Virus record (IMG/VR): IMGVR_UViG_3300023184_002781
Span: 1 to 64,000 of that record
Strand: one strand, 5' to 3'
Length of the DNA: 64,000 bases
Source of the DNA: a virus
In this document: positions 957 through 36,871 of the stretch, piece by piece
Numbering within the stretch: position 1 is the first letter of the stretch
Layout: each line of letters begins with the position of its first letter
Made by a program: the position numbers and the translations under genes
Notes under the pieces: model-generated
Databases searched by the model: none
The model's input: only the letters and a program-made list of their open reading frames with translations
What the model was told of the DNA's origin: nothing

Positions 957-1589
957 TTATTCATATTCTTTTACATTTATTCCATTTAATGTATATAGTG
1001 CATCCCAGCTATCTTTAAACTTTTCATTATATCCCAAAGATTCAAGCAATTTTTGAAAATCATCATATGTTGTTCCAGTGTCATACATATGAAACTCGCT
1101 TATTTCTGCCCATATTATTTTTGGACGCAAGTTACCAATAGCACTGAATACTTTATGTTCTGCTCCTTGAACATCGATGTGAATGAAATCTGGTCTTATA
1201 TTATGTTCTTCACAAAAAGATTCTAGTGTAACACTATTTACCGTGTAACCATCTCCCCACTTCCATCGTTCATTTAATAAATTAGGTCCCGGTTCACAAA
1301 CGCTACCTGACCAAGGCCATTCTTTACCGTCTAATATATCACTAGGATAAAATGTTAAAGTTCCAACTATATCCGAGACAGCCACATGAAAGTAATTTAT
1401 CCCATGTTTTACTGCTACTTGTTTATTGTTTTGTTCCCAAAATTTAGAACATTCAAATGCATATATAGTAGCTGAAGGAATTTTTGCTTTGATATTTCGA
1501 GTGTCGTTTAAGTCCGCCGCCCCGATATCAAAAATTATTGCATTAGGATTTAGATTATTTGCTAGCCAATTTAAATTAAAATTACTCAT
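957..1589 (-). CDS. FkbM-family SAM methyltransferase
   Basis: IFDIGA, YAFE and FIHIDVQGAE motifs; start taken as MSNFNLNW. Confidence 0.85.
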   Translation of the reverse strand: MSNFNLNWLANNLNPNAIIFDIGAADLNDTRNIKAKIPSATIYAFECSKFWEQNNKQVAVKHGINYFHVAVSDIVGTLTFYPSDILDGKEWPWSGSVCEPGPNLLNERWKWGDGYTVNSVTLESFCEEHNIRPDFIHIDVQGAEHKVFSAIGNLRPKIIWAEISEFHMYDTGTTYDDFQKLLESLGYNEKFKDSWDALYTLNGINVKEYE

Positions 1590-2247
1590 ATGTATCGTAA
1601 AAAATAGTGTTGATAGCGTCAATATAAATTTCTTTGTATCTATGGGAAACAATAAACTTTCTAATCATAGAATGACTACTTTGTATATCTGGATAGTTAT
1701 TATAATTTGGATGAACATCAGACAACTCTGCGATAATCATTTTTGGCCTGTGTTCACTTAAACTAAACGATTCAAAAACTTGTTGCTCATATCCCTCAAC
1801 ATCTACTACTAATAAATCAAAATTTTTAGGAACATTATGCTTTTGTAGTATTGTATCTAACCTACATGTAAGCACAGTCAGTTCAGTTTCGTTGGCAAAG
1901 TAAGCAGGTTCAAAAATATTCTTATGTGCGATGTGCATAGAATCACTTAAAGTACTTAATCCCCCGACTACATGAATTTTGCTGTCAGTATTGTTTATAC
2001 CAATAGCACATTGTTCAAATTTAACATTATTATGTTTATGTCTTTGCTGACAAAGATTTATATATTCAGGAACTGGTTCTACATAGATACCAGTCCATTC
2101 CAAATCTGCAAGACAACTAGTATTAGACCAAGACTCACCGTCAAATGCACCAACCTCAACAAAAAATCCAGTTGTCTTATTAAAGTACTGTAGATAAATT
2201 TCTTTAAGATTGGGTATTTGACAAGTTTCAGATATTTTAATATTCAT
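1582..2247 (-). CDS. FkbM-family SAM methyltransferase
   Basis: FVEVGAFDG, YVEP and LLVVDVEGYE motifs; start taken as MNIKISET. Confidence 0.85.
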   Translation of the reverse strand: MNIKISETCQIPNLKEIYLQYFNKTTGFFVEVGAFDGESWSNTSCLADLEWTGIYVEPVPEYINLCQQRHKHNNVKFEQCAIGINNTDSKIHVVGGLSTLSDSMHIAHKNIFEPAYFANETELTVLTCRLDTILQKHNVPKNFDLLVVDVEGYEQQVFESFSLSEHRPKMIIAELSDVHPNYNNYPDIQSSHSMIRKFIVSHRYKEIYIDAINTIFYDTYE

Positions 2248-2315
2248 TGAGTTGTTTTTCAATTCAGGCATATATTTCAGACAGACCATACTCTAGGTTC
2301 TCATTTGGTGACCAA

Positions 2316-3980
2316 CTAATTGCCTTGTGGTGTAATAGGTTCTTGACCCATTGTCTCTTTAGATCCCTGCATGGTTCGAGTTTGGTTACGAATCCCCGGT
2401 GTGCTGGTATCTTGTACCGGTTGAGGCTCTTTTGGTTCCTGGGGTACCTGAGGTACCTGTGCTGGTTGGACTTGTTGAGCAGGTACAGACTTTTGAGCCG
2501 GCGCACTAGTTTCTGGTGCTAGTGCGTCACTGCTACCAACTCCGCCAGATTCTCCATTATACAGAATATGGAAAGTCATGTTGCCTTGTGCCCCAGTTGT
2601 CCAATAGGCTTTTTCTGTAGTTAATTTTACACCTGTAACTGCCTGTGATGGATACACGGCATGCATTCCACGAATAAGAAAATCTTTATCACTTGGAATA
2701 ACGTCATTATACACTTGTATCAATGCACTATTGTTTAATATATCCGAAGCACTGGCGCTAAAATTAGTATTTTCATTAACGTGCTTGGTCACTTTAAATG
2801 CTATGATTAGCATCATGGTATGAATTGGTACTACTGGTTTTTTCCAATTTTTAAGATAATTATTATACCATTCTTCAAGTTTAGCACTAATAATATTTTT
2901 CCCGATTGGTGTATCTCCAAGATCGAGATTCATATTTTTTAAGTTCATTACCTGCTCTTTTTCTTCTGGGGTAATCAATTTAGTTTGGACCGCTATATCT
3001 AAAGGAGCCGAAAAATGTGTCTTACCATCAAATTCTCCGGGTTTGTTTTTCTTTTCATTGCCTTTGAAAGCATTAATAATTTGCATTACATTTTGATGTT
3101 TTTTAATTATTAATCGACCTTTATCAGTTTGTTCTAATTCATCTATAATTCTAAGAAAATTCTGAGCACTGGCTTTAGCACCGCCGCCGACAGCATCTTT
3201 AGTAGAGATTTTTAATTCTTTACCTTCGGGTGTAACTAATACACTATCACTCAATGCCCCACCTTGATTATCATTGAACTTAATTGAACAGTTGGTTAAT
3301 GAGGCACCTGGTCCGAAAAACATATCAACAGCATCCTGTGCATTCCCTGAAAGTTTCATTCCTTTAACTAATGCAATAGGTTGTAACATTTCACAAAAAT
3401 AAATTTTGAATGCTTCAAAATTCATAGCACCTTTAGGTACTTTTACTGGAAAATTACTAGCGGCCAAAAACGTTTGTGCTGCTACTGCTTCGTCACTTCC
3501 CTGACCAAATTTAGATACTATTTGATCAACTATTGATTGTGGAGTTTGTCCATCAAAATTTGTTAAAACTTCGCTAGGTTTATATCCAGCATTTTCTTTA
3601 ATACCTTCTTTGGTATTATATTTGTATCCACCGGGTATAGCAGAGTGTGGGAAATCGTTATCGTTTCTATTGGCCTTAATATCTTTAAAATATTTTCCTA
3701 ATACAACATCGGCATTTTTATTATCTTTAAATGATGCAAGCCCGAATGCTAATAAATTATTTCCGGGTGCATTGACCCAGGTAATGTTTTTTCCGTTAGT
3801 TGCCTGTGTTTTTGCAGTATCCATATCAGCGGGTGTAGGGTATTTTCCAACGTTGGGGAAAAATTCCAGGCCTTGAAATACTAGAGTTTCACCTTGTTGA
3901 TTTTTAAAAACCTCGCCGGGTTTTCGTCGAGCTAGGCCAACACCTTCAACTAACAGTGGTAAGAATTCTCTTGCTCGCAT
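2316..3980 (-). CDS. Late protein with possible PD-(D/E)xK nuclease-like core and Pro/Gln-rich tail
   Basis: 554 aa; N-terminus MRAREFLPLLVE; LSDSVLV...ELKISTK motif; TATAAATA 7 nt upstream of ATG. Confidence 0.55.
   Translation of the reverse strand: MRAREFLPLLVEGVGLARRKPGEVFKNQQGETLVFQGLEFFPNVGKYPTPADMDTAKTQATNGKNITWVNAPGNNLLAFGLASFKDNKNADVVLGKYFKDIKANRNDNDFPHSAIPGGYKYNTKEGIKENAGYKPSEVLTNFDGQTPQSIVDQIVSKFGQGSDEAVAAQTFLAASNFPVKVPKGAMNFEAFKIYFCEMLQPIALVKGMKLSGNAQDAVDMFFGPGASLTNCSIKFNDNQGGALSDSVLVTPEGKELKISTKDAVGGGAKASAQNFLRIIDELEQTDKGRLIIKKHQNVMQIINAFKGNEKKNKPGEFDGKTHFSAPLDIAVQTKLITPEEKEQVMNLKNMNLDLGDTPIGKNIISAKLEEWYNNYLKNWKKPVVPIHTMMLIIAFKVTKHVNENTNFSASASDILNNSALIQVYNDVIPSDKDFLIRGMHAVYPSQAVTGVKLTTEKAYWTTGAQGNMTFHILYNGESGGVGSSDALAPETSAPAQKSVPAQQVQPAQVPQVPQEPKEPQPVQDTSTPGIRNQTRTMQGSKETMGQEPITPQGN
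2322..2353. repeat. 32-bp direct repeat, copy 2 (3' end of the 554-aa gene)
   Basis: Identical to 892-923; encodes MGQEPITPQG. Confidence 0.95.
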
Positions 3981-3990
3981 AATAGTATAT

Positions 3991-4656
3991 TTATACTACT
4001 TCTGGAAACAGGACTTCGCTGACAAAACGTTTCATTTTAGATTCTTCTACACCCATACTAACCATACTGCGTATAACGTGTGGATTCTGCTTTTGATAGT
4101 GACAATAACGATTCTGTGCCATGTGATAATCTGCTGTGTCTTGCTGCGTATTTCCGACGTTTTTTAGATAATAATCCAATGTACGTAGTGCTAATTCACA
4201 TAAATTGTCTAATTCTTCGCCTATTCTTACATTACCTGCGGCAACCATTGCAGGGCTGAATATACTACTTGCCCACTCAGGCAGGTCTCTAGCCTTTTGC
4301 CAATTGTAGTAAAGTAACTCATTGGCAAACCAACGCATCATAGGATGTGTGGGATCACCTCCTGAACTGTAATCACAGAATGCACCTGTGATTTTATTTG
4401 GACCACACACTGCATCAAATCCAAAAATAGGGCTAGGATCGTTAAAACGTGGAAACACCGTACAATGTAAAATGTAGATATTGTGACTTTCTCTATTATC
4501 TACAATTTCTATATGTGCTCTACGATATCGAGGGCTTGACCAAAGTTGATTATGCCACTCGTAATCTAAATTACCTGCTATTGGTTCTCCAGTAGCATTA
4601 AATTTGTCCTCGAACTTTTTAGCTAGTTCTTCAATTTTGTCCCAAACTGCTGTCAT
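3991..4656 (-). CDS. pcyX: Ferredoxin-dependent bilin reductase (PcyX/PcyA-like)
   Basis: RRAHIEIVD, LHCTVFP, PIFGFD, LPEWASSIFSP and QNRYCHYQKQN motifs; adjacent to heme oxygenase. Confidence 0.8.
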   Translation of the reverse strand: MTAVWDKIEELAKKFEDKFNATGEPIAGNLDYEWHNQLWSSPRYRRAHIEIVDNRESHNIYILHCTVFPRFNDPSPIFGFDAVCGPNKITGAFCDYSSGGDPTHPMMRWFANELLYYNWQKARDLPEWASSIFSPAMVAAGNVRIGEELDNLCELALRTLDYYLKNVGNTQQDTADYHMAQNRYCHYQKQNPHVIRSMVSMGVEESKMKRFVSEVLFPEVV

Positions 4657-5176
4657 ATGATTCCATTATTTTAATTGCCCATTCAAAGGCTATGTTGGCT
4701 TCAACGGCCATATCGTCTGACAGCATAGTACGTACAGTTTTAATTAACTCGGCACGATCTTCAAACTCTAAATGTGAGTGTGGTGCTTCCACAATCTTCT
4801 TAATCATTTGGCCACCGTGTAGGTCGCCCATGTGCCAAGTATAAAGGTGTGCCATAATACGAGTAGGATCACCTAATGTTCGTATATAACTAACATACTC
4901 TTTGGTTACTTCTTTATAGGTATTAAAACTACCTACAGGTTTATCCATGGCATCGTAGTCATCCATGATTAATCCTGCTCGTTCAAAGCCTGGTGGAAAT
5001 GCGTCTAACAATCCCGCTGTACGGGCAGCATGTTCTATTTCTTTATACCAAAGTTGTTTTTGATATGTAAAATCTACCCAAACATCAAAAGGCAATGTCT
5101 TTGCAAACACTGCCTTCATGAATAGGGTATCTTCTGCCTGTTGATGTTTATCAGCAGTTAAATCTTTTAAACTCAT
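4631..5176 (-). CDS. hemO: Heme oxygenase
   Basis: LKDLTADKHQQAE proximal His helix; AHLYTWHMGDLHGGQMI distal helix. Confidence 0.88.
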   Translation of the reverse strand: MSLKDLTADKHQQAEDTLFMKAVFAKTLPFDVWVDFTYQKQLWYKEIEHAARTAGLLDAFPPGFERAGLIMDDYDAMDKPVGSFNTYKEVTKEYVSYIRTLGDPTRIMAHLYTWHMGDLHGGQMIKKIVEAPHSHLEFEDRAELIKTVRTMLSDDMAVEANIAFEWAIKIMESYDSSLGQN

Positions 5177-5185
5177 AGTAGTTCC

Positions 5186-5491
5186 TCATTCGGGTTCTAC
5201 TTTAATTATCAAAGGCCAACCATGTGCTCTGGCTAAATTGGTTCCATCGATGGCTTTCTGCTCTGCTACTTCAAAACTATAAGTACCTACTGTAGCACTA
5301 CCTTGAGTATGTATTTGTAATGTTAGTACTAATGCTGTTTTTTGATCATGTCTAAACACAGCTATTAACATTGATATTACAAATTCCATAGGAGTTGAAT
5401 CATCATTACATACAATGACTTTAAACTTACCAGGTTCTTTAATCCTATTAATTGTTCTAGTCTTTTTTTCTACTACAGTATCAGTGGTCAT
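5186..5491 (-). CDS. clpS: ATP-dependent Clp protease adaptor ClpS
   Basis: KVIVCNDDSTPMEFVI, IHTQGSA and EVAEQKA motifs. Confidence 0.93.
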   Translation of the reverse strand: MTTDTVVEKKTRTINRIKEPGKFKVIVCNDDSTPMEFVISMLIAVFRHDQKTALVLTLQIHTQGSATVGTYSFEVAEQKAIDGTNLARAHGWPLIIKVEPE

Positions 5492-5504
5492 AATCTTATT
5501 TCAT

Positions 5505-5527
5505 AAAGGGGGCCGAAGCCCCCAAAC
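5505..5527 (-). terminator. Rho-independent terminator after hsp20
   Basis: GGGGGC-TTCG-GCCCCC stem with UUCG loop, followed by TTT. Confidence 0.8.
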
Positions 5528-5528
5528 T

Positions 5529-5963
5529 TTATTCGCCCTTAATTTTAAGGACACGAGGTTTCAACGCATCAGGAACAACACGCTTCAATTCAATTGTAAG
5601 CACACCATTCTTGATAGTTCCATCTCCGACTTCCATATGTTCAGCCAAAGTCCAGCTACGTGTGAAGTCTCGTAGAGCCAGCCCACGATGTAGGAATTCG
5701 GCAGTAACATCGCTGCTCTTATCTCGAACTCCTTTAACGATCAGTTGATTCTGATCAATCTCAACTGTGACTTCATCCTTGGAAAACCCTGTTACAGCAA
5801 TTTCGATCTCATAGGTATCGTCGTTGTGTTTAACAATGTTGTAAGGGGGGTAGTTATCTTTGAGTTGATTTGCATAACGATGTTCAATATCGTTAAACAT
5901 TGTATCAAAACCTAGAAGTGCTCTGTTTAGAGCGTTGGTGTCGAAACGTACTAATTGTGTCAT
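5529..5963 (-). CDS. Small heat shock protein (Hsp20/IbpA-like)
   Basis: YPPYNI, IAVTGF, FLHRGLA and NGVLTIEL alpha-crystallin motifs. Confidence 0.95.
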   Translation of the reverse strand: MTQLVRFDTNALNRALLGFDTMFNDIEHRYANQLKDNYPPYNIVKHNDDTYEIEIAVTGFSKDEVTVEIDQNQLIVKGVRDKSSDVTAEFLHRGLALRDFTRSWTLAEHMEVGDGTIKNGVLTIELKRVVPDALKPRVLKIKGE

Positions 5964-6047
5964 ATTTTTTCTCCTTTAAAAGTAAGATAACACTGGGCAC
6001 TATGCCCTAAAGTGGGACCCTTGATAGGTGTCCCACAATACTATTTA
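5964..6047 (-). promoter_or_regulatory. TAAATA promoter plus three-hairpin ROSE-like 5' UTR of hsp20
   Basis: Hairpins GTGGGAC/GTCCCAC and GGGCATAGTGCCC; TCTTACTT can pair with the AAGGAGA SD; architecture duplicated upstream of dnaK. Confidence 0.65.
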
Positions 6048-7949
6048 TTATACAGTCTCTTTAGCTTCTGTGTCAACTATGCCGTCTTCCGCATCTTTCT
6101 TGGCCTGTTCTTCAGCTTTCTTTGCTGCTTCTTCGGCTTCATGCTTCTTACCAGTGATAGGACCCATAGCTTGATAAAGTTTTGGAATACTATCTTGAAT
6201 GATTTTAGGATCATCGCCTTTGATAGCATCTCTAATTGCTTGAGCTGCATCATCAACATTAGCCTTTTCTTCAGCAGTAACTTGATCTCCATACTTGTCA
6301 ATATCAGCTTGGAATTCATTTAAGGTAGATTCTGCTGAGTTACGTGCTTCAATGAGCTCACGTTGTTTCTTATCCGATTCAGCATTAGCTTCGGCATCTT
6401 GAACCATACGTTCGATTTCTTCTTTGCTAAGTCCGCTGTCGGATTTGATAGTGATCTTATTCTCTTTGCCGGTTCCTTTGTCTATTGCCTTGATATTCAT
6501 AATACCATTAGCATCGATATCTAAAGTAACTTCAATTTGCGGAGTACCTCTACGTGCTGGAGGAATACCTTCTAATTTGAATTCGCCCAATAGCTTATTG
6601 TATTGGACGAATTCTCTCTCGCCTTGGAATACTTTGATATCTACAGCAGGTTGATTGTCATCAGCTGTGCTAAACACTTGGCTATGTTTAGTAGGAATGG
6701 TTGTGTTCTTTTGAATCAACTTGGCCATTACACCGCCTTGGGTTTCAATACCGAGACTTAGTGGAGTAACGTCTAGCAATAGAACGTCAGTGCGTCCTCC
6801 ACCTAGTACATCACCTTGGATAGCAGCACCAGCAGCTACTGCTTCATCTGGATTAACATCCTTGCGTGGTGCCTTGCCGAATAGTTTCTCAACTGTTTCA
6901 ACAACCTTAGGCATACGTGTCATACCACCAACAAGGATAACTTCATCAATGTCTCCAGCAGTAACACCTGCATCTGCCATAGCAGTTTTACAAGGTTCAA
7001 TACTACGTTGGATTAATTCATCAACTAGACTTTCTAACTTAGCACGAGTAAGTTTAACATTTAAATGTTTAGGACCACTTGCATCTGCTGTGATGTAAGG
7101 CAAATTAACATCTGTCTGTGCAGAACTAGACAATTCAATCTTTGCTTTTTCAGCAGCTTCTTTCAAACGCTGGAGTGCTAGCATGTCCTTTTTAAGATCA
7201 ACGCCGTTGTCTTTCTTGAATTCATCAACCAAGAAATCCATAATACGCTGGTCAAAGTCTTCGCCACCTAAGAATGTATCACCATTGGTGCTTAGAACTT
7301 CAATTTGTTTGTCGCCATCAACATTAGCAATTTCAATAATACTTACGTCAAATGTACCACCACCTAGGTCATAGACAGCAATCTTGCGATCACGTTTGTC
7401 TGCCTTATCCATACCATAGGCAAGAGCAGCAGCAGTAGGTTCGTTGATAATACGTAGAACTTCAAGTCCTGCAATCTTACCAGCATCTTTAGTTGCTTGA
7501 CGTTGTTGGTCATTAAAGTAAGCAGGTACAGTAATAACTGCCTGTGTAACTTCGTGTCCAAGATAGTCTTCAGCAGTGAGTTTCATTTTGCGAAGAACCT
7601 CAGCACTGATTTGTGGGGGAGCAAGTTCTTGATCATTTGCACTTACCCAAGCATCGCCATTGCTTGCTTCAATAATTTTGTAGGGCATTAGATCAATGTC
7701 CTTCTGTACAGCCTGTTCTTTAAACTTACGTCCAATTAGACGTTTAGCTGCATAGATTGTGTTCTTTGGATTTGTAACTGCTTGGCGTTTTGCACTAGCA
7801 CCTACAAGAATTTCATCGTTGGCATAGGCAATAATACTAGGAGTAGTCCTTGCACCTTCGCTGTTTTCGATGATTTTTGGAATACCGTTTTCAATAACGG
7901 CTACACATGAATTGGTTGTACCGAGGTCGATACCGATTACTTTACTCAT
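6048..7949 (-). CDS. dnaK: Chaperone DnaK (Hsp70)
   Basis: [19 protein letters not shown] and [11 protein letters not shown] motifs; full length 633 aa. Confidence 0.98.
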
Positions 7950-8032
7950 AATTTCTCCTTTAATTAAGTAAGAGTTTTGTGGGCCCTATGCCCGATAAGA
8001 TATCCAATATAGGTATATCGTGCATTTATTTA
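7950..8032 (-). promoter_or_regulatory. TAAATA promoter plus three-hairpin ROSE-like 5' UTR of dnaK
   Basis: GATAT/ATATC hairpin, GGGCATAGGGCCC and TCTTACTT...AAAGGAGA. Confidence 0.65.
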
Positions 8033-8043
8033 TTATAGATTAA

Positions 8044-8322
8044 TCAAGAATCAATGTCAATATGATCGGCAGCTTTTGCTACATTTTTCATTTTTTCATT
8101 ATAAATGTTACGACTTTGCTCAATATCAAACTCAAAATTTTCTGGGTTATTAACTGCTTTTAGCACAGGATGTATTATCTTATCTGTGATCCTACGACTC
8201 ATATCTTCCATGACTTTTTCTATATCGTCACCTCGGGCAATACGTTGCATAGCACGACCTTTTTCAAACATGCTAACACGAGTTGCCCATGACTCTATAG
8301 ACTCATCCGGATTAATTCTCAT
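8044..8322 (-). CDS. Stand-alone glutamyl-tRNA reductase (HemA) dimerisation-like domain protein
   Basis: EKGRAMQRIARGDDIEKVMEDMSRRITDKIIHP resembles the proteobacterial HemA C-terminus. Confidence 0.6.
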   Translation of the reverse strand: MRINPDESIESWATRVSMFEKGRAMQRIARGDDIEKVMEDMSRRITDKIIHPVLKAVNNPENFEFDIEQSRNIYNEKMKNVAKAADHIDIDS

Positions 8323-9134
8323 TCAATATTAAATTCTAATGTACTACTTATTTTAGGTATAAGAGTAGGTTCCACATCAATACTTAGTAGGTCTTCTACT
8401 ACACGACTGCGATTTTTGATATTGGTTTGTCCGAGAACTACCACTCCGAATAACTCTTTATTTTTTTCTATTAACATAAGCACACATCTTCCGGCCGGAT
8501 TAGTGAATCCAGTTTTACTAATTAAAATATTATCATATACAAATATATCTGGATTTGTATTTCTTAAGTTAATTGTAATAGTTTTTTTACCCTTGGGTAC
8601 TTTTAAAACCATATTACGTTCATTGGCTATTTTACGTATCACTAGATTGTCTTTGATACGATGTAAAAATTCTATGAGTTCTCGAGCAGTACTTTTATTA
8701 CCTTCTTTAAGTCCCGTGCTATCCACAATTGTAGTATTCTCTAATGTAATATCTTTTACATAGTTATTAACATCAAATAAAAATTTATTAAAGCCGCCTG
8801 GATGATGATATGCCAGTGTTTCTGCTGCTCTATTGTCACTGGTGATAATCATGGCTCGCATAAGGTCCATACGTGTCATATATGTTCCCCTTATAACATG
8901 ACCAGCGCTCCGACCATCTATATATATTTTTTCATCAAGATCAACTCCACTATTCAATACAGTTATTGCAGTAAATAATTTTGTAATGCTAGCTATGCTT
9001 CGAATTTCTACATGATTATATCTTACAATATAGTTAGCAGAACTATAATCATACAGAGCATACGATCCGGGCAAGGATGTTGCAGCATGGGCTGATGTTA
9101 TAAACATCAGTAGTATAATAAAAAGTTTTTTCAT
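8319..9134 (-). CDS. Peptidase S11 (D-Ala-D-Ala carboxy/endopeptidase, PBP7-like), secreted
   Basis: Signal peptide; SITK (SxxK), SDN (SxN) and KTG motifs. Confidence 0.9.
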   Translation of the reverse strand: MKKLFIILLMFITSAHAATSLPGSYALYDYSSANYIVRYNHVEIRSIASITKLFTAITVLNSGVDLDEKIYIDGRSAGHVIRGTYMTRMDLMRAMIITSDNRAAETLAYHHPGGFNKFLFDVNNYVKDITLENTTIVDSTGLKEGNKSTARELIEFLHRIKDNLVIRKIANERNMVLKVPKGKKTITINLRNTNPDIFVYDNILISKTGFTNPAGRCVLMLIEKNKELFGVVVLGQTNIKNRSRVVEDLLSIDVEPTLIPKISSTLEFNIE

Positions 9135-9430
9135 GACCACTTCAATATAAACATAGTTAGATCTTTTTCATCTTTAAAATAAAACTTATCTTTCTTTTCA
9201 AACCAACGGACACCTGATTTTCCATATTGCTTAATACACCATTTTAGTGCCTGTTCATTTATATCAGGTGGAGTATCTTCTGCTCTACCAAGTTCGATCC
9301 AAGTGTAGTGCATACCCCAACCACTAGCTTTGCCAGTTTTCATAGGACGTAACTCGTGATCCGAACCTATGTTCAAACCACCAAATACTTGACTACTAAT
9401 ATTAGGGAAACCGGGGATTGTTGTTGCCAT
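9131..9430 (-). CDS. Hypothetical protein, 'FxL(K/R)W' C-terminal family
   Basis: Ends FYFKDEKDLTMFILKWS. Confidence 0.75.
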   Translation of the reverse strand: MATTIPGFPNISSQVFGGLNIGSDHELRPMKTGKASGWGMHYTWIELGRAEDTPPDINEQALKWCIKQYGKSGVRWFEKKDKFYFKDEKDLTMFILKWS

Positions 9431-13002: not shown

Positions 13003-13040
13003 GTGGTTATAACTCCATTAAATAGTCAAAAGGATTGATT

Positions 13041-13460
13041 ATGGAAAAGATTAAGAAAGCACTTTGGTTTACCGCAGGTATTTTATTTTTGGGAATAGCA
13101 TATATTGGAATAATTGTTCCCGGAATTCCATGGTCCACTCCTAGTTTAATTGCAACCTACTGCTTTGCTCGTAGCAGTAAAAAGTTCCATGACTATATGT
13201 TAAATCATAAGTTATTTGGGCCATTCATCAAAGATTGGCAAGCAGGTAGCGTATTTCCCGCTAAGGCCAAATGGTTCATGTTTATAAGCATGGATGTTAG
13301 TTTGGTTATCTTTTGGTTCGCCACACAGAATTGGAAAGCCACAATGGGTATGGGCATATTCTTTGCACTAATTATACTTTGGGCAAGCCGATTGCCGGGT
13401 AGCAGAGAAGAAGCAGAACGCAGGAAAGAAGCTGGAGAAAAGTTAGGTTGGTTTAAGTAA
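13041..13460 (+). CDS. YbaN/DUF454 inner membrane protein
   Basis: GIIVPGIPWSTP, CFARSS and HKLFGPFIKDW motifs; TAAATA at 13019 and AAGGA SD. Confidence 0.85.
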   Translation: MEKIKKALWFTAGILFLGIAYIGIIVPGIPWSTPSLIATYCFARSSKKFHDYMLNHKLFGPFIKDWQAGSVFPAKAKWFMFISMDVSLVIFWFATQNWKATMGMGIFFALIILWASRLPGSREEAERRKEAGEKLGWFK

Positions 13461-14061
13461 TAAGATTTTTAAAACTTTTATATTTCAGTGATTCATATAT
13501 TTGATCAAGTGTAGGATATCCCTCAAATTTAGTTTGTATTATAATCCTTGGATCATTTCCTCTACATTTAAAACTATGAAATACATCGACGTTTAGCAAA
13601 TATACATCTCCAGCTTCAACTTTAAGTTCTTCTATAAATGGAACTTTTTCATATTGTTTAATATGAGCATCTCTGGAATAACCATATTCGTGTCCGTCTT
13701 TATCTTTTATACCTAATACTGCAATACGTTTTATTAAAGCATCATCATACCATCGAACCCAATCATTAGGATTACATGATATTGCTATGTTAAGGGCCGA
13801 CTTGCATTTTAGTCCATCTTTATGGATTCCATATCCATATCCCCATTCGCTATAAAATGCCTTTTGTGTATGTCTTTTCTTTTCACTTGACCATTGAATT
13901 TTAAGGTCGGTATTTTCAAATATTTCTACAAACTTATCATTTAATGTTTTATCAAATTGAATCCATTGATATGGTTCGTTATCAACTTTTCTTTTAAGAA
14001 TTTCTTCTTTAAAAAACTCAATAGTATCAGTGGGTAATTTTCCCAATTTTATGTAAAACAT
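13453..14061 (-). CDS. Putative cupin/2OG-Fe(II) oxygenase-like protein
   Basis: HKD...H...R pattern (GIHKDG; NVDVFHS; PRII). Confidence 0.5.
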   Translation of the reverse strand: MFYIKLGKLPTDTIEFFKEEILKRKVDNEPYQWIQFDKTLNDKFVEIFENTDLKIQWSSEKKRHTQKAFYSEWGYGYGIHKDGLKCKSALNIAISCNPNDWVRWYDDALIKRIAVLGIKDKDGHEYGYSRDAHIKQYEKVPFIEELKVEAGDVYLLNVDVFHSFKCRGNDPRIIIQTKFEGYPTLDQIYESLKYKSFKNLIT

Positions 14062-15382
14062 AATCTCTTTGTTGTTTAATAGACATATCTATTAATTTAG
14101 ATACGTCAGGAAAAACTTTTCTCCAATCTGTATTTCTTGATTTATCTAAATGGTTCATAAAATTAACAAAATTTACAATGCTTTCTGGTTTATGGAATTT
14201 ATCATCTAATTTTTGTTGCAGATGCAAAATTATAATTTCAGCCTTTTCGCTGGTATTTACATATTGTTTATAATAGTCAATTAGCTCTTGTTTAGCAACA
14301 GCAGGCAACGATGCTACACTATGGAAATCGGGGCCTTCTAAAAATCTTATATGGAAAGTTGCACCAATTGATCTACACCATTCTTCACTTTCAATAATAC
14401 TATATGCTGTGGCAATTTGAAAGCAAGTAGTTAATGCTTTGATTTCAATTTTACCATTAGATTCAATTTCGTATTCTTTTAATTTTTTAACATTTTTTTG
14501 AAATTTATCCCAATTGCCCGGGAATCTAATAATTTCATATTGATCATTAATAGCATCCATACTACCACGAATGTCAATCTTTTTAAAATGCTGCCAGCGT
14601 CTGGCAATTTTATCATTAACGGCACTACAATTTGTATCGTATTCTAACCATATATTTTTAGCATATCCTGAATCGATTAGTTTATCTAACATGATATCAT
14701 GTGCAGGTGTAACCATGGGTTCTCCACCTGTTATGTATATATGTTTTAAATATGGCATCATGCTTTCAAATTTTGGCCACCATCTAGGATCTTCAAACCA
14801 TTTTAATTCAATTGGTTCTATCCATTTATTTGTTTTTGGATCTTTTACAATTCTAACTTTTTCGCCTTGTCCAAACTCTGTTTTTTGATGAATTTCTACA
14901 TATTCATCGTACCACATATTACTAAACGTTGGGTTACACATTATGCATTTCTGATTACATAAATTTCCAAATCTAATATCCAAACTACTAGGCATCCAAT
15001 CTATGTTTCCATCTTTATCTATTTTATCATGATATGTGGATTCAGAAACAACATTGTCATCTTCGATATTCATCAAATAGACTCTTCTACTTGTATTTTT
15101 ATGACCTCTGTTGTAATTTGTAATTACTTCTCTATTTTCACAACAATCACAATGTGGGCTCCATGCATTGGGGTCTTTCACATTAAGTAACCGCACTTCT
15201 CTATGCTTGTCACTATTCATTATATCCTGAATGCTATGAGTTAAAATATGCATTACGTTGCCAAATTTATCTCTGCATCGTTGCATATCCAAATCGGGAT
15301 TACTATTTTGTCCTATAGAACATAATCTGATATATCCATCAGGGAGAATATGCAACCCATTCCAAACTGTCTTACAAAACAT
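14027..15382 (-). CDS. Radical SAM protein with N-terminal SPASM/twitch-like domain
   Basis: CNQKCIMC, TGGEP and YDTN motifs; N-terminal C...C...CxxC. Confidence 0.9.
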   Translation of the reverse strand: MFCKTVWNGLHILPDGYIRLCSIGQNSNPDLDMQRCRDKFGNVMHILTHSIQDIMNSDKHREVRLLNVKDPNAWSPHCDCCENREVITNYNRGHKNTSRRVYLMNIEDDNVVSESTYHDKIDKDGNIDWMPSSLDIRFGNLCNQKCIMCNPTFSNMWYDEYVEIHQKTEFGQGEKVRIVKDPKTNKWIEPIELKWFEDPRWWPKFESMMPYLKHIYITGGEPMVTPAHDIMLDKLIDSGYAKNIWLEYDTNCSAVNDKIARRWQHFKKIDIRGSMDAINDQYEIIRFPGNWDKFQKNVKKLKEYEIESNGKIEIKALTTCFQIATAYSIIESEEWCRSIGATFHIRFLEGPDFHSVASLPAVAKQELIDYYKQYVNTSEKAEIIILHLQQKLDDKFHKPESIVNFVNFMNHLDKSRNTDWRKVFPDVSKLIDMSIKQQRDYVLHKIGKITH

Positions 15383-18395: not shown

Positions 18396-18625
18396 TACAT
18401 TTTTTTGGGTAATTGCTGATCGTTTAGCTTTTTTTTCCATCGGGCTTTAGCTGCACCTTTAGCTCGTTTGCGTGTTGTAGTGGGTTTTTCATAAAACATT
18501 TTGGCTTTGAGATCTTCAAGAAGTCCAGAATCTTCTACTTTTTGTTTAAATTTACGGAGTGCTACTGCTATAGGAAGATCCCCAACAATTACCTTGTTTC
18601 CAAATACTTTATTGTTTTTGCTCAT
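18392..18625 (-). CDS. rpsU: Ribosomal protein bS21
   Basis: ALRKFKQKV...[20 protein letters not shown]. Confidence 0.9.
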
Positions 18626-19841
18626 TTTTCTTTTTATCAAAAATCATTACGGCTGATTTACCGTTTATAGTATCTTTACTTATCCGTATTGATTTTAAAC
18701 CACGTTCTACAAGATCAACAGCGTCAAATTGATAGGGCAACAATACTTTTTCTATAATGTTTTTTAATCCACGAGCATTAGTTTTAAGTTCTTTGGCTTT
18801 CTCGGCAACAACTTGTAAAGCATCGTCATCAAAAGAAAGATCAATTCCATCAAGTTCAAATAGATATTGATATTGTTTTATCAAACTGTTTTTTGGTTCT
18901 TTTAAAACTTTAGCCAATTGCTCAACATTTAGTTCTTCTACATTTATATAAAGTCCAAAGCGCCCAACGAACTCTGGTATCATTCCAAATTTAATTAAAT
19001 CTTTAGTAGTTAATTCTTCATAAATTTTATTGGTGTCTGTTTCATTTTTTATATTAGCATGAAAACCTACTGATTTGGCATCAGTACGTTGCTGAATAAT
19101 TTTATCCATTCCAACAAAAGCACCACCACATATAAACAATATACCACGAGTATCTATTTCTTGCATCTCACTTCCCGGATGCTTACGTTTGCTAGATGAT
19201 GGGATACGCATAACGGATCCTTCAATCATCTTTAGTAAGGCTTGTTGAACACCTTCCCCGCTGACATCTCTAGTGATACTAGCACTTTCACTTTTGCGAG
19301 CAATTTTATCAATCTCATCAATATAGACAATACCACGACTAGCTTTTTCTAAATCCCCATCTGCTTCGCCAATTAAACGTGTAAGGATACTTTCAACATC
19401 ATCTCCAACATAACCTGCTTCGGTAATACCTGTAGCATCACAAATAGCAAAGGGCAAATCTAAATAATCAGCAATCTTACGTGCCATCATAGTTTTGCCA
19501 CATCCTGTTGGTCCTAACAATAGTACATTTGTTTTTTCAATTTCTATTTCTGTACTAGGATTATTAATGCGTTTAAAATGTTGGCTTACTGCCACACTTA
19601 GGGCAATCTTAGCATTGCTTTGTCCAATAACATATTGATCAAGATATTCTTTAATTTTAACAGGGTTCAACAACTTTGCATCTTTAAGATCGTGTTTGAC
19701 TTTTTCATCTTTTAATATATCAACACACAGTTCAACGCAATCGTTACAGACGGCTGCATTCTCACCCACAATTAATTTCTCTACATCTTCTTTGCTTTTT
19801 CCACAAAAATCACAGACATGAGTATCACTAAGTTTTGTCAT
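18609..19841 (-). CDS. clpX: ClpX ATPase
   Basis: C4 Zn finger; [22 protein letters not shown] and VGF loop. Confidence 0.97.
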
Positions 19842-29943: not shown

Positions 29944-29969
29944 AAAAGAAACCCGCCGAAGCGGGTTCT
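29944..29969 (-). terminator. tmRNA terminator
   Basis: AGAACCCGC-TTCG-GCGGGTTTCTTTT. Confidence 0.85.
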
Positions 29970-30217
29970 GTTATTTTCTGTTACGAGGTATAACTACCCT
30001 AGGCGGCGTTTAGGCGGCCAAGGCGAACTGTGAGTCGTTTGCATTTACTTTTTTTGCTTGATTTACGGTCATCGCCTACCGTGCTGTCCACTTCAATACT
30101 CCTGACCCAATCGATCCTGTGTCATCCCCACCTAAATATACTTTATACACTTAGGTGGAGATGCCGGGCACTGCCCCCGGGTCTTGGCTCCATTTTTATC
30201 CGCTTCATACAGCAATA
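29970..30217 (-). ncRNA. ssrA: Circularly permuted two-piece tmRNA, tag ANDSQFALAA
   Basis: Acceptor piece first (T-arm CCGGG-GGCAGTG-CCCGG, CATCTCC-ACC ending 30154), hairpin spacer, then GGGGATG at 30129 (G3:U70); tag at 30042-30010; TAAATA at 30223-30228. Outer ends approximate. Confidence 0.92.
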
Positions 30218-30225
30218 ACTCTTAT

Positions 30226-30372
30226 TTAATCAGCTCGTGTATAATTCAATACCATACCTTGGCCATATTGGGCTTCAGCAATCATTTTAGCCTGCCAATC
30301 ATTATCAGCATTGACAATGACATTAGCAGTTTGATAAGGATTCAAACGAATCCAAACATTGTAACGATACAT
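30226..30372 (-). CDS. Small early protein (48 aa)
   Basis: Manual: MYRYNVWIRLNPYQTANVIVNADNDWQAKMIAEAQYGQGMVLNYTRAD; AGGAG SD; own sigma70 promoter. Confidence 0.8.
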   Translation of the reverse strand: MYRYNVWIRLNPYQTANVIVNADNDWQAKMIAEAQYGQGMVLNYTRAD

Positions 30373-34410: not shown

Positions 34411-34550
34411 TTCCATGTCCTTATCGCGATCCAATGTTGGATGCGTTGTATATGCCATGCCATCCATCCGGGCACACGGCATATTTTTTTACCACTTGGT
34501 GTGTATAATGTATTATCACTACTAACACCCATTAATCCTATTGTTATCAT
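34407..34550 (-). CDS. Small Trp-rich protein (47 aa) between nrdA and nrdB
   Basis: Manual: MITIGLMGVSSDNTLYTPSGKKICRVPGWMAWHIQRIQHWIAIRTWK; ATGA overlaps at both ends. Confidence 0.7.
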   Translation of the reverse strand: MITIGLMGVSSDNTLYTPSGKKICRVPGWMAWHIQRIQHWIAIRTWK

Positions 34551-36871
34551 AATTTGCATGCCTCGCAGTCTTCGTCGTCGCTATATATAGTAACAGGTTC
34601 TAATGCTACTAATCTATCACTTTGTGTCATTAATATATTTTTACTACCTACTTTGTCTATCAGGCTATAATACATAGTCTTTAAACCCCACTTGTAGGCT
34701 AACATTAAGTTCTTAGCAATTAATGTTCCTGGTACTTTACCATCTTTAAAATGTCTCGGACTATAGAATGTATTAGTACTTAGACTTTGGTCAATATATG
34801 CTGCTAGGACCGCTGATGTTTTTAAATAATCAACACAATCAGCCTGTTCCCACATCAATTGATAACGGTTCTTCAAGCGACGATATTCCGGAACAACTTG
34901 TGTAAATGATCCGGCCTTGCTTTCTTTAACGCTGATCAGTTCCATAGGCATTTCAATACCGTTAGTAGAGTTTAAAACAACACTACTTGATTCAACAGGA
35001 GCAACTGCCATAAGTGTAGCATTACGTATCCCATACTTCTTCATACGCTCACGTAATGGTTCCCAATCCATGCTAGGTGTAAAGTCTGTGAGTTCATTAA
35101 CACCTGCTGCTCTGCGTTCCCAAGGAAATACTCCCCGGCCGTAGTAAGTATGTTCGCTACGCAGACATGGGCCACGCTCTTGGGCCAGTTCCACACTTGC
35201 TTCGGTTAGGTAGTATGCCTGATGTTCCATCCAACGTTTGACTTCTGCTAGTGCATCTGGTTCGCCGTATTTAAAACTCTTACGTGCATGCCAGTAGGCT
35301 AAGTTTGTAATGCCAACACCTAGTGGTTCAAAATCATCATTGGCTAGTTTGCTCTGTATGCTTAGGAAGTCTTGATATTGTAACAAGTTACTTAGACTGC
35401 GAACCAATATTCTGCAAGCCTTACGCATTTCTTGTGGATTACGGAATGCACCCCAATTTATGGACCCAAGAGTACAAAGAGCAATGCGTCCCTCTGGATC
35501 TTCAATTCTTTGGAAAGGCTTCGTGGGTAAAAGTATTTCTTGGCATAGATTTGATTGGTATATTGGGTCAAGCTGTGTATCAAACGGGCCCTGGTTGATA
35601 ACGTTGTCAATGTTGACAAGGTAGATGCGCCCAGTATCAGTACGTTCCTTAAGGATACCATTTTTGAAGATTTCATCAGCCGATACGCTCTTCTTTTTAA
35701 TTGTCGGATGCTTTTCATAATTTAGGTATAGTTTTTCAAATTCTTCGCTGTTGCGATAGTAAGCTTCGTATAAGTCAGGTACGTCATGTGGATCAAACAA
35801 TGTCATCATTTGTCCATTCTTATAACGATTCCAAAACATTTTATTAATCACTACACTGTAATCCATTTGACGCACACGAGTTTCTTCAGTACCTTGATTA
35901 TTTTTAAGAACAATAAGGTCTTCAAACTGATAATGCCAAACGGGGAATGTTACTGTACAACTTGCATTACGGATGCCACCTTGACTACAACTACGTAGAT
36001 CAGCAAACCATTTTTTCAAGAAAGGTATCATACCTGTATGTTTGATTTCACCGTTACGTATAGGAGCACCGAGTGGGCGGATACGTCCAATCTCTAATCC
36101 TATGCCAGCACGTTTGCTAGCATACTTGGCCATCATTTCACCAGAAGCGAAGATGCTGTCCAAAGTATCATCGCTACTGATAAGGACACAGCTACTAAAC
36201 TGCTTAGTAGTAGTACCGAGACCAGCAAGCACAGGTGTAGCCAACGTAAAATGGCCTGCGCTAGCACATTCGTAATATTCTTTGACATACTTTAATCTTG
36301 CCTCCTTAGATTCATTATGGAATGCTGTTGCCGCAGCAATAGCATAACGTACCTGAGGAGTCTCGAATATCTGTCCAGTGGCACGATTCTGTACTAGATA
36401 TTTTTCACATAACTGTGCTATGGCAGCATAGGTATAAGTTTCATCTTTGTCATGGTCGATGAATAATTCAATGATATTCCATTCCTCTTCCGAATACCAT
36501 TTAAGTAATTCCGGTGTGTACATTCCGGCATCGATATTCTTTTTTACAATATCGTATAGGCGGGAAGGTTTATAATCTCCATATACCTCTTTACGTAGCA
36601 TACTGACCTTTTGGCGTCCCGCTACTAGTTGATAATTTACATTGTTAATTTCTGGATTTTCAGTTTCGTCTATAAGATCAACCATTGCCTTAAGCAATAG
36701 TTCATCTATTGTTTCTGTAGTCATTCCATCATGTAGTTCAATTTGCGCTTTGATTTCGATCATACTAGGACTAACCCCGTCTATACCCTTACAAGAGTAT
36801 GCTACTTGTCGTTGTATTTTTTCAATATCAATGGGGACGCGATTCCCATTACGCTTTACTACTGTAATCAT
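34547..36871 (-). CDS. nrdA: Ribonucleotide reductase class Ia alpha subunit
   Basis: ATP cone, FSSC, SNLCQE, KTMYY and C-terminal CEAC. Confidence 0.97.
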   Translation of the reverse strand: MITVVKRNGNRVPIDIEKIQRQVAYSCKGIDGVSPSMIEIKAQIELHDGMTTETIDELLLKAMVDLIDETENPEINNVNYQLVAGRQKVSMLRKEVYGDYKPSRLYDIVKKNIDAGMYTPELLKWYSEEEWNIIELFIDHDKDETYTYAAIAQLCEKYLVQNRATGQIFETPQVRYAIAAATAFHNESKEARLKYVKEYYECASAGHFTLATPVLAGLGTTTKQFSSCVLISSDDTLDSIFASGEMMAKYASKRAGIGLEIGRIRPLGAPIRNGEIKHTGMIPFLKKWFADLRSCSQGGIRNASCTVTFPVWHYQFEDLIVLKNNQGTEETRVRQMDYSVVINKMFWNRYKNGQMMTLFDPHDVPDLYEAYYRNSEEFEKLYLNYEKHPTIKKKSVSADEIFKNGILKERTDTGRIYLVNIDNVINQGPFDTQLDPIYQSNLCQEILLPTKPFQRIEDPEGRIALCTLGSINWGAFRNPQEMRKACRILVRSLSNLLQYQDFLSIQSKLANDDFEPLGVGITNLAYWHARKSFKYGEPDALAEVKRWMEHQAYYLTEASVELAQERGPCLRSEHTYYGRGVFPWERRAAGVNELTDFTPSMDWEPLRERMKKYGIRNATLMAVAPVESSSVVLNSTNGIEMPMELISVKESKAGSFTQVVPEYRRLKNRYQLMWEQADCVDYLKTSAVLAAYIDQSLSTNTFYSPRHFKDGKVPGTLIAKNLMLAYKWGLKTMYYSLIDKVGSKNILMTQSDRLVALEPVTIYSDDEDCEACKL

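Follow-up and report, generated by a model that had tools for sequence, protein, structure and literature searches.

A candidate tetrapyrrole module in a freshwater jumbo phage: ORF92, a predicted stand-alone glutamyl-tRNA reductase dimerisation domain, beside a haem oxygenase and bilin reductase block

The window analysed here comprises the first 64 kb (64,000 nucleotides) of the 96,211-bp linear IMG/VR virus record IMGVR_UViG_3300023184_002781 (hereafter G000), the completeness of which was estimated by CheckV at 28%. The complete relatives of this record have genomes of 322 kb (G055, with terminal repeats) and 364 kb (G010), so the window belongs to a fragment of a jumbo phage, namely an uncultured freshwater (lake) jumbo phage. 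The genes considered below form a minus-strand run (Table 1) coding for ORF92, a 92-aa protein similar to the dimerisation domain of glutamyl-tRNA reductase (GluTR, or HemA), for the chaperones DnaK and Hsp20, for the N-degron adaptor ClpS, and for a haem oxygenase (HemO, HO) and a PcyX-clade ferredoxin-dependent bilin reductase (FDBR). All six had been proposed in an earlier, sequence-only reading of the window, and each was found in the place given to it or very nearly so.

Table 1. Features of the window that are discussed in the text
Feature	Position	Strand	Evidence or remark
Two neighbouring FkbM-type methyltransferase genes	957-2289	-	PF05050; downstream of the 554-aa gene
554-aa virus-only protein, no assigned family	2316-3980	-	Directly downstream of pcyX
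PcyX-clade FDBR	3991-4656	-	PF05996, E 1e-19
Haem oxygenase, short form, 181 aa	4631-5176	-	PF01126, E 8.6e-13
ClpS N-degron adaptor	5186-5491	-	PF02617, E 2.4e-23
Hairpin GGGGGC-UUCG-GCCCCC, hsp20/clpS gap	5508-5523	-	16 nt before the clpS start
Hsp20 small heat-shock protein	5529-5963	-	PF00011, E 1.6e-15; phrog_432, E 1.6e-39
Sigma-70 consensus promoter TTGACA-17-TATAAT before dnaK	8032-8060	-	12/12 match; inside the ORF92 3' end
Sigma-70 consensus promoter TTGACA-18-TATAAT before hsp20	6047-6076	-	12/12 match
DnaK (Hsp70)	6048-7949	-	PF00012, E 1.8e-256
ORF92, 92-aa GluTR (HemA) dimerisation-domain protein	8044-8322	-	PF00745 (GlutR_dimer), E 1.1e-5
S11 D-Ala-D-Ala carboxypeptidase	8319-9140	-	PF00768, E 7.9e-31
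DUF454/YbaN-like small membrane protein	13035-13460	+	PF04304, E 3e-27
451-aa ORF, radical-SAM-like	14027-15382	-	Weak radical-SAM (QueE-like) PHROG matches
ClpX-like AAA+ unfoldase	18609-19841	-	PHROG matches: zinc-finger region, then AAA+ region
Two-piece beta-type tmRNA	29947-30263	-	RF01850, 126.7 bits vs gathering score 84
Class I ribonucleotide reductase	34547-36871		

ORF92 matches the GlutR_dimer profile with 26.1 bits against a cut-off of 22.9, its residues 10-60 corresponding to profile positions 30-80, and a six-frame search of the record gave 24.9 bits for the same protein. The lone HemA dimerisation domain suggested earlier from the sequence therefore passes the Pfam threshold at this place, and it is shared by the family, since 85 of the 86 aligned members match PF00745, the best of them with an E-value of 8.5e-10. 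The two top matches of a family profile in the PDB were GluTR chains, namely 1gpj of M. kandleri (positions 339-394 of 404) and 4yvq, the C-terminal region of the Arabidopsis enzyme in a crystal with FLU; a PDB search with the single ORF92 sequence returned no GluTR, whereas the family profile did match it, weakly. Residues 9-60 of ORF92 were aligned by hhalign onto residues 348-399 of the 418 residues of E. coli HemA. The conserved core of ORF92 is the GluTR hallmark and includes E20, A24, G31 and the VLE-x-MS-x-RI-x-x-K48-LLHP motif; the last 32 residues, with the invariant Y74 and a P-x-A-D86-H87 motif, have no counterpart in HemA and are specific to the family.

When 1.84 billion representatives were searched exhaustively with phmmer (E ≤ 1e-3), at least 140 clusters of ORF92-type proteins at 50% identity were obtained, nearly all of them 85-100 aa long and matched end to end, with no full-length HemA among the 140 clusters; nothing longer or fused turned up either, which is weak evidence. 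The family is known from metagenomes only, as neither a tblastn search of the isolated phages in INPHARED nor a search of GTDB with one genome for each species detected a relative. The catalytic domain of GluTR (PF05201, GlutR_N) is absent from G000, G010 and G055, and for a family that lacks this domain the automatic name 'glutamyl-tRNA reductase' given by the Joint Genome Institute misstates the function. An AlphaFold2 model based on the family alignment has a pLDDT of 89.7 and consists of helices at residues 9-29, 34-58 and 67-78. On these profile matches and conserved positions, ORF92 is a conserved, stand-alone GluTR dimerisation domain. Its start codon overlaps the stop codon of the S11 carboxypeptidase gene (ATGA), an arrangement indicating translational coupling, and in 22 of 44 metagenome loci the gene immediately upstream of ORF92 codes for such a carboxypeptidase, although its function is probably outside tetrapyrrole metabolism.

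Downstream of ORF92, the hsp20, clpS, hemO and pcyX genes form a tightly packed block behind a perfect consensus promoter. The gap between hsp20 and clpS is occupied by the hairpin, which leaves no room for a promoter of its own, clpS and hemO are separated by 9 nt (they overlap in many relatives, often by 4 nt), and hemO and the FDBR gene overlap by 26 nt, so the four genes must be transcribed as one unit. Both promoters in Table 1 are called as consensus matches only. The block was found in 48 of 80 PcyX-centred loci, i.e. those 80 loci of IMG/VR that most resemble the PcyX of the window, while the presence of dnaK between ORF92 and hsp20 is variable (22 of the 80).

The assignment of the reductase to the PcyX clade is based on its best PDB match, 5owg (PcyX_EBK42635; E-value 2.2e-49, 171 bits), compared with 2.6e-13 and 53 bits for PcyA; among isolated phages it is matched best by the FDBR of Pelagibacter phage Mosig, with 38% identity. 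H64 and D81, which we take to be the catalytic His/Asp pair by analogy with PcyA and PcyX, are invariant across the aligned relatives. The haem oxygenase leaves the C-terminal third of the PF01126 profile unmatched; nevertheless, its proximal histidine and the distal-helix motif GDLxGGQ (GDLHGGQ in the phage protein) are kept in the alignment to HmuO (1iw0). Since the catalytic motifs are preserved in HemO and in the PcyX-clade reductase, the pair should cleave host haem and reduce biliverdin to a phycobilin: HemO would convert haem of the host to biliverdin, iron and CO, and the final product is probably phycoerythrobilin, possibly phycocyanobilin.

The residues N34, D35, D36, T38, M40 and H66 of E. 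coli ClpS belong to its conserved N-degron pocket. This pocket is intact in the phage protein, which has NDDSTPM and IHTQG where E. coli ClpS (1mbu/3o2b) has NDDYTPM and VHYQG. In bacteria, clpS is usually located beside clpA; the phage clpS stands with hemO, and a ClpA-like gene is found far off in G055 and G010.

The association of ORF92 with the haem oxygenase block was examined from both sides. Scans of IMG/VR that were centred on ORF92 yielded 13 loci, seven of which show the order ORF92-[DnaK]-Hsp20-ClpS-HO-FDBR, and whole-record searches detected HO and FDBR in nine of the 13 records, i.e. in all of those large enough, including the complete G010; the four records without them are fragments of 8.5-65 kb. 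The metagenome scan provided 67 further loci, 22 of them with at least 4.5 kb of downstream sequence, and the full Hsp20-ClpS-HO-FDBR block is present in 19 of these 22. The sequence-only reading had staked its proposal on the co-occurrence of these genes, which was thus found in both collections. Among the 80 PcyX loci, HO adjoins FDBR in 77, and ORF92 is located upstream, within 10 kb, in 30 of the 48 block-bearing loci and in none of the 32 loci without the block. These 32 loci lack ClpS and belong to T4-like phages, in which the pair lies next to neck and sheath genes. Elsewhere in the record, ORF92 was found in none of 30 ORF92-negative records. On the FDBR tree, about six changes were counted for ORF92 and about five for ClpS, and the gene order ORF92-[DnaK]-Hsp20-ClpS-HemO-PcyX is conserved across the freshwater jumbo-phage lineage.

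A phage cassette hemO-pcyA/X-valaS, the last gene of which codes for an active viral synthase (vAlaS) of 5-aminolaevulinic acid (ALA), was described previously (Nat Commun 2024; PMC11480375). ALA synthase (AlaS) genes were searched for with TIGR01821 in the records and with PF00155 in G000. None was detected in the 30 ORF92-positive FDBR-centred records, including the complete G055, or in six other ORF92-positive records (G000, G004, G006, G010, G011 and G013), and AlaS is present in 11 of 18 ORF92-negative records that carry the ClpS-HO-PcyX block, with scores above 520 bits in each case; the T4-like records without ClpS have no AlaS (0/32). A naive Fisher test of AlaS against ORF92 gives p 1.1e-6. 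Approached from the side of AlaS, ORF92 does not occur within 10 kb of it in any of 80 AlaS-centred loci, nor anywhere in 37 larger AlaS records, the three positive controls being recovered (3/3). The pooled set of 83 block-bearing loci contains 54 with ORF92, 22 with AlaS, none with both and seven with neither, all seven of which are fragments. In the slot of ORF92 in the AlaS-positive locus L033 there is an ORF which also codes for 92 aa, and it proved to be unrelated to the family.

ORF92 and AlaS are therefore mutually exclusive in the records examined: they never occur together. This pattern involves nine state changes for ORF92 and seven for AlaS on the FDBR tree of the pooled loci, and two AlaS-positive loci, L033 and L035, sit on short branches within an ORF92-positive clade, which indicates that the swap between the two genes is recent and not the result of one deep split. 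The only two complete ORF92 genomes, G010 and G055, both possess HO and FDBR, and both lack AlaS.

The hosts are probably Betaproteobacteria, the same class for ORF92 and AlaS phages, as the beta-type transfer-messenger RNA (tmRNA) exceeds the Rfam gathering score in phages of either kind. Betaproteobacteria make ALA by the C5 (GluTR) pathway. With beta-type tmRNAs present in both kinds of phages, the either/or pattern is not explained by host class. A 10.9-kb contig of a Chitinophagales metagenome-assembled genome (CAZXGO010000081.1, L016) with Hsp20 followed by ClpS was the sole contig returned when genome contigs were scanned with the phage ClpS; it is probably a misbinned phage fragment and so says nothing about the host. 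Moraphages, which carry DnaK and Hsp20, were also considered as a match and represent a separate lineage infecting Bacteroidota.

The exclusivity of ORF92 and AlaS suggests that the entry step of the haem pathway is where the two exert their effect. The best explanation for the whole arrangement is a tetrapyrrole module in which ORF92 would act on the host GluTR as the counterpart of valaS, and we regard this reading, drawn from sequences and gene content, as about equally likely to be right or wrong. ORF92 would dock on the dimer interface of the host GluTR, or on a partner that binds this domain, and would thereby alter ALA synthesis during infection, being the C5-pathway counterpart of the valaS carried by sister phages instead. 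As ORF92 and valaS substitute for one another in a single lineage, the same net effect is favoured, i.e. ORF92 may, like vAlaS, keep up the supply of ALA and haem, or may free it from proteolysis and from feedback by haem. That ORF92 binds the host HemA, whether as a decoy or as a stabiliser, is something that we purely infer. GluTR is known to be a regulated enzyme in other systems: its abundance in Salmonella is set by ClpAP and Lon (PMC5801465), and in plants its C-terminal region is bound by FLU (4yvq title; PMC6597238), while ClpS1 and ClpF bind its N-terminus and select it for degradation (PMC6597238).

Several observations weigh against an action of ORF92 on the haem pathway. The family-specific tail of 32 residues may have a different function. 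As for the fold, the wide search (VIA) found 4yvq with a Z-score of 5.5 at rank 48 only, tied with unrelated helical hairpins, and Foldseek against the PDB returned nothing below an E-value of 1, only generic helical hairpins; for such a small helical fold, these searches cannot separate ORF92 from other helical hairpins, and structure thus speaks neither for nor against the homology. The S11 carboxypeptidase, an unrelated enzyme, is tied to ORF92 as tightly as the haem block is. Several losses of ORF92 left the HO block in place, and in the complete G010 ORF92 lies 63 kb from HO and FDBR among unrelated genes, so it is dispensable for HO and PcyX. The counts, too, have to be read with care, since the co-occurrence figures come from related phages, some loci represent the same contig in two collections, which inflates the raw numbers, and most records are fragments (2-67% complete), which makes the absences soft. 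Only four to five independent contrasts are supported; AlaS changes in the direction opposite to ORF92 in three to four of them and never in the same direction, but the sign test (p 0.125-0.25) is underpowered and all the phages are related. Finally, the tmRNA type is the sole basis for the host assignment.

The linkage could also be inherited synteny only, an alternative that we consider unlikely but worth taking seriously. ORF92 would then derive from the 3' end of a captured hemA and would now have an unrelated role in an island of proteostasis and envelope genes, for example as a small helical adaptor for DnaK, Hsp20, Clp or the co-translated DD-carboxypeptidase, and the history of sub-lineages, not a function, would account for its proximity to hemO-pcyX as well as for the mutual exclusion with valaS. 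It fits this alternative that the whole series ClpX...DUF454, o271, DD-carboxypeptidase, ORF92, DnaK, Hsp20, ClpS, HO and FDBR is syntenic in relatives, that the overlap with the carboxypeptidase gene recurs (22/44 loci), that W12, Y74, D86 and H87 are family-specific and were counted as lying outside the HemA-aligned region, that ORF92 stands alone in the G010 lineage, and that the contrasts have little statistical power. It is harder to explain in this way why the most conserved part of ORF92 is precisely the GluTR hallmark G-x-D...VLE-x-MS-x-RI-x-x-K-LLHP, why ORF92 and AlaS meet in none of the 83 block loci despite nine and seven state changes, why the swap occurred recently between sister clades, and why the two complete ORF92 genomes both have HO and FDBR without AlaS.

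If ORF92 does act on GluTR, the sign of the effect could also be the opposite one. As a dominant-negative partner, it would form dead-end heterodimers with the host GluTR and shut down the C5 pathway, so that Glu-tRNA(Glu) would be saved for phage translation while HemO and PcyX dismantle the existing haem. GluTR is a dimer formed through this very domain (1gpj title and annotation; Pfam definition), a free copy of an interface is the classic design of a dominant-negative protein, and the phage invests heavily in translation and quality control (tmRNA, ClpX, DnaK); moreover, the authors of the vAlaS study saw the sparing of tRNA(Glu) as an advantage in hosts outside the Alphaproteobacteria (PMC11480375). 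We nevertheless find this improbable, because vAlaS raises haem flux and an inhibitor would abolish it, which makes either/or replacement of the one by the other less parsimonious, and because HemO and PcyX would run out of substrate if the synthesis of haem were blocked.

A further suggestion, that the phage ClpS together with ORF92 controls the proteolysis of the host GluTR in the manner of plant ClpS1, appears quite improbable. It has in its favour that ClpS1 and ClpF bind to the N-terminus of GluTR in plants (PMC6597238), that ClpAP and Lon degrade the enzyme in Salmonella (PMC5801465), and that the phage ClpS keeps its N-degron pocket and is welded to hemO. ClpS, however, fails to track ORF92, being equally linked to HO-PcyX in AlaS phages that have no ORF92, and the complete relatives possess a ClpA-like protein, ClpP and ClpX of their own, so ClpS can be read as a member of the phage proteostasis set and a general role of this kind suffices. 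The ClpS-GluTR link is thus weak. The earlier proposal that the phage may govern both the entry into and the exit from the haem pathway is partly supported, as it gains from the exclusivity of ORF92 and AlaS and from the hemO-pcyX-valaS precedent. That ORF92 is just a non-functional remnant of an acquired host hemA is hardly credible: it does cover only the last ~70 residues of a 418-aa enzyme, but its family comprises no fewer than 140 clusters, all of them intact ORFs roughly 90 aa long that have (nearly) invariant positions, and it shows a conserved position, strand and translational coupling as well as a confidently predicted fold.

Taken at its fullest, the reading of ORF92 as a valaS counterpart would make it the first protein of a virus to target the C5 pathway at its rate-limiting enzyme, one that mimics only the oligomerisation and docking domain of GluTR, reprogrammes ALA synthesis without being an enzyme, represents an evolutionary alternative to vAlaS and, together with Hsp20, ClpS, HemO, PcyX and perhaps DUF454, provides full control of haem flux from entry to exit; this broader claim is put forward tentatively, as somewhat less than an even prospect.

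The DUF454 gene corresponds to the YbaN-like gene which the sequence-only reading had placed at 13041; it lies 4.7 kb from the module and on the other strand. In 27 of the 80 AlaS-centred loci a DUF454 gene is located directly downstream of valaS on the same strand, and in 20 more it lies at a distance of up to 4 kb; the pairing holds over AlaS identities of 56-100%. This suggests a role of DUF454 tied to ALA or porphyrins.

On the other side of the module, the gene for the 554-aa protein is kept directly downstream of pcyX in 22 related loci. The protein has no Pfam or PHROG match, and its neighbours in the Atlas are viral hypothetical proteins. It was considered as a bilin acceptor; with no family and a poor model, nothing can be said in this respect. 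A search of the 96-kb record for the phycobiliprotein domain (PF00502) gave no match, which is consistent with the earlier remark that no bilin-binding protein is visible, and neither the record nor the complete relatives encode a plant-type ferredoxin, a phycobiliprotein or a GluTR catalytic domain. In about 25 loci the position downstream of pcyX is taken by CsgF-like and CsgG-like genes of a curli secretion channel (e.g. L023:12178-13905); they are absent at that position in the window, which has the 554-aa gene there instead, followed by the methyltransferase genes.

The proteostasis set of the lineage, compiled from G010, G055, G059 and the window, is nearly complete and includes ClpX, ClpP, a 756-aa ClpA-like protein, ClpS, DnaK, Hsp20 and the beta-type tmRNA, and the ClpX-like gene is syntenic in relatives. 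The 451-aa radical-SAM-like ORF, which could code for an iron-sulphur enzyme, and the ribonucleotide reductase are possible users of the iron released by the haem oxygenase, although this is speculative.

To our knowledge, no agreed purpose has been found for phage hemO/pcyX pairs in non-phototrophs since 2016. The pair itself and the control of ALA entry by phages are already known, and the discovery of vAlaS in 2024 revealed that such phages also act at the start of the pathway. Neither a GluTR-domain mimic as an alternative to valaS, nor the hsp20-clpS-hemO-pcyX block, nor the valaS-DUF454 pairing was found in the vAlaS study (PMC11480375) or in the further literature searched, and the latter two are concrete, previously undescribed leads. 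Should the proposed role of ORF92 be true, it would be a second, non-enzymatic solution at the ALA entry step and would define a new class of auxiliary genes, the product of which imitates a regulatory domain and is not an enzyme of metabolism. A natural probe would also become available for the control of GluTR in bacteria by way of its C-terminal domain, a subject on which little is known outside plants, and the question of whether these phages want more haem or less would become directly testable by comparing ORF92 with vAlaS in a single system.

The module resembles the marine PhiPcyX/PhiHemO pairs in that PcyX is the best match of its reductase and in the overlap of hemO and FDBR genes, as in Pelagibacter phage Mosig, and it differs from the pairs of T4-like phages, which are surrounded by neck and tail genes and lack ClpS, Hsp20 and ORF92 (0/32 loci). 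ORF92 shares with the C-terminal domain of GluTR (1gpj, 4yvq) about 52 homologous residues, including KLLHxP, and is itself predicted to consist of three helices; unlike GluTR, it is a stand-alone protein which has neither a catalytic nor an NADPH-binding domain, bears its own 32-residue tail and is found only in phages. The plant FLU-GluTR and GBP/ClpS1-GluTR systems, with a docking site in the C-terminal region and control by ClpS and Clp, provide an analogy from eukaryotic plastids and not homology; no homologue of FLU or GBP was noticed in the phage, although no search aimed at one was made. Also among the closest known systems is the hemO-pcyA/X-valaS cassette; in the same study a freshwater PcyA/X was shown to make phycocyanobilin (PMC11480375), which leaves the product of the present enzyme uncertain. 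Common to both are the adjacent hemO and PcyX-type FDBR genes and the occurrence in large phages of non-phototrophs from aquatic habitats including freshwater; the cassette has a third gene aimed at the ALA-forming entry step, and sister phages of the window lineage do carry valaS. The phage described here, in contrast, has no ALA synthase and possesses in its place a non-catalytic 92-aa copy of a GluTR domain, and its hemO-pcyX pair is joined to hsp20 and clpS.

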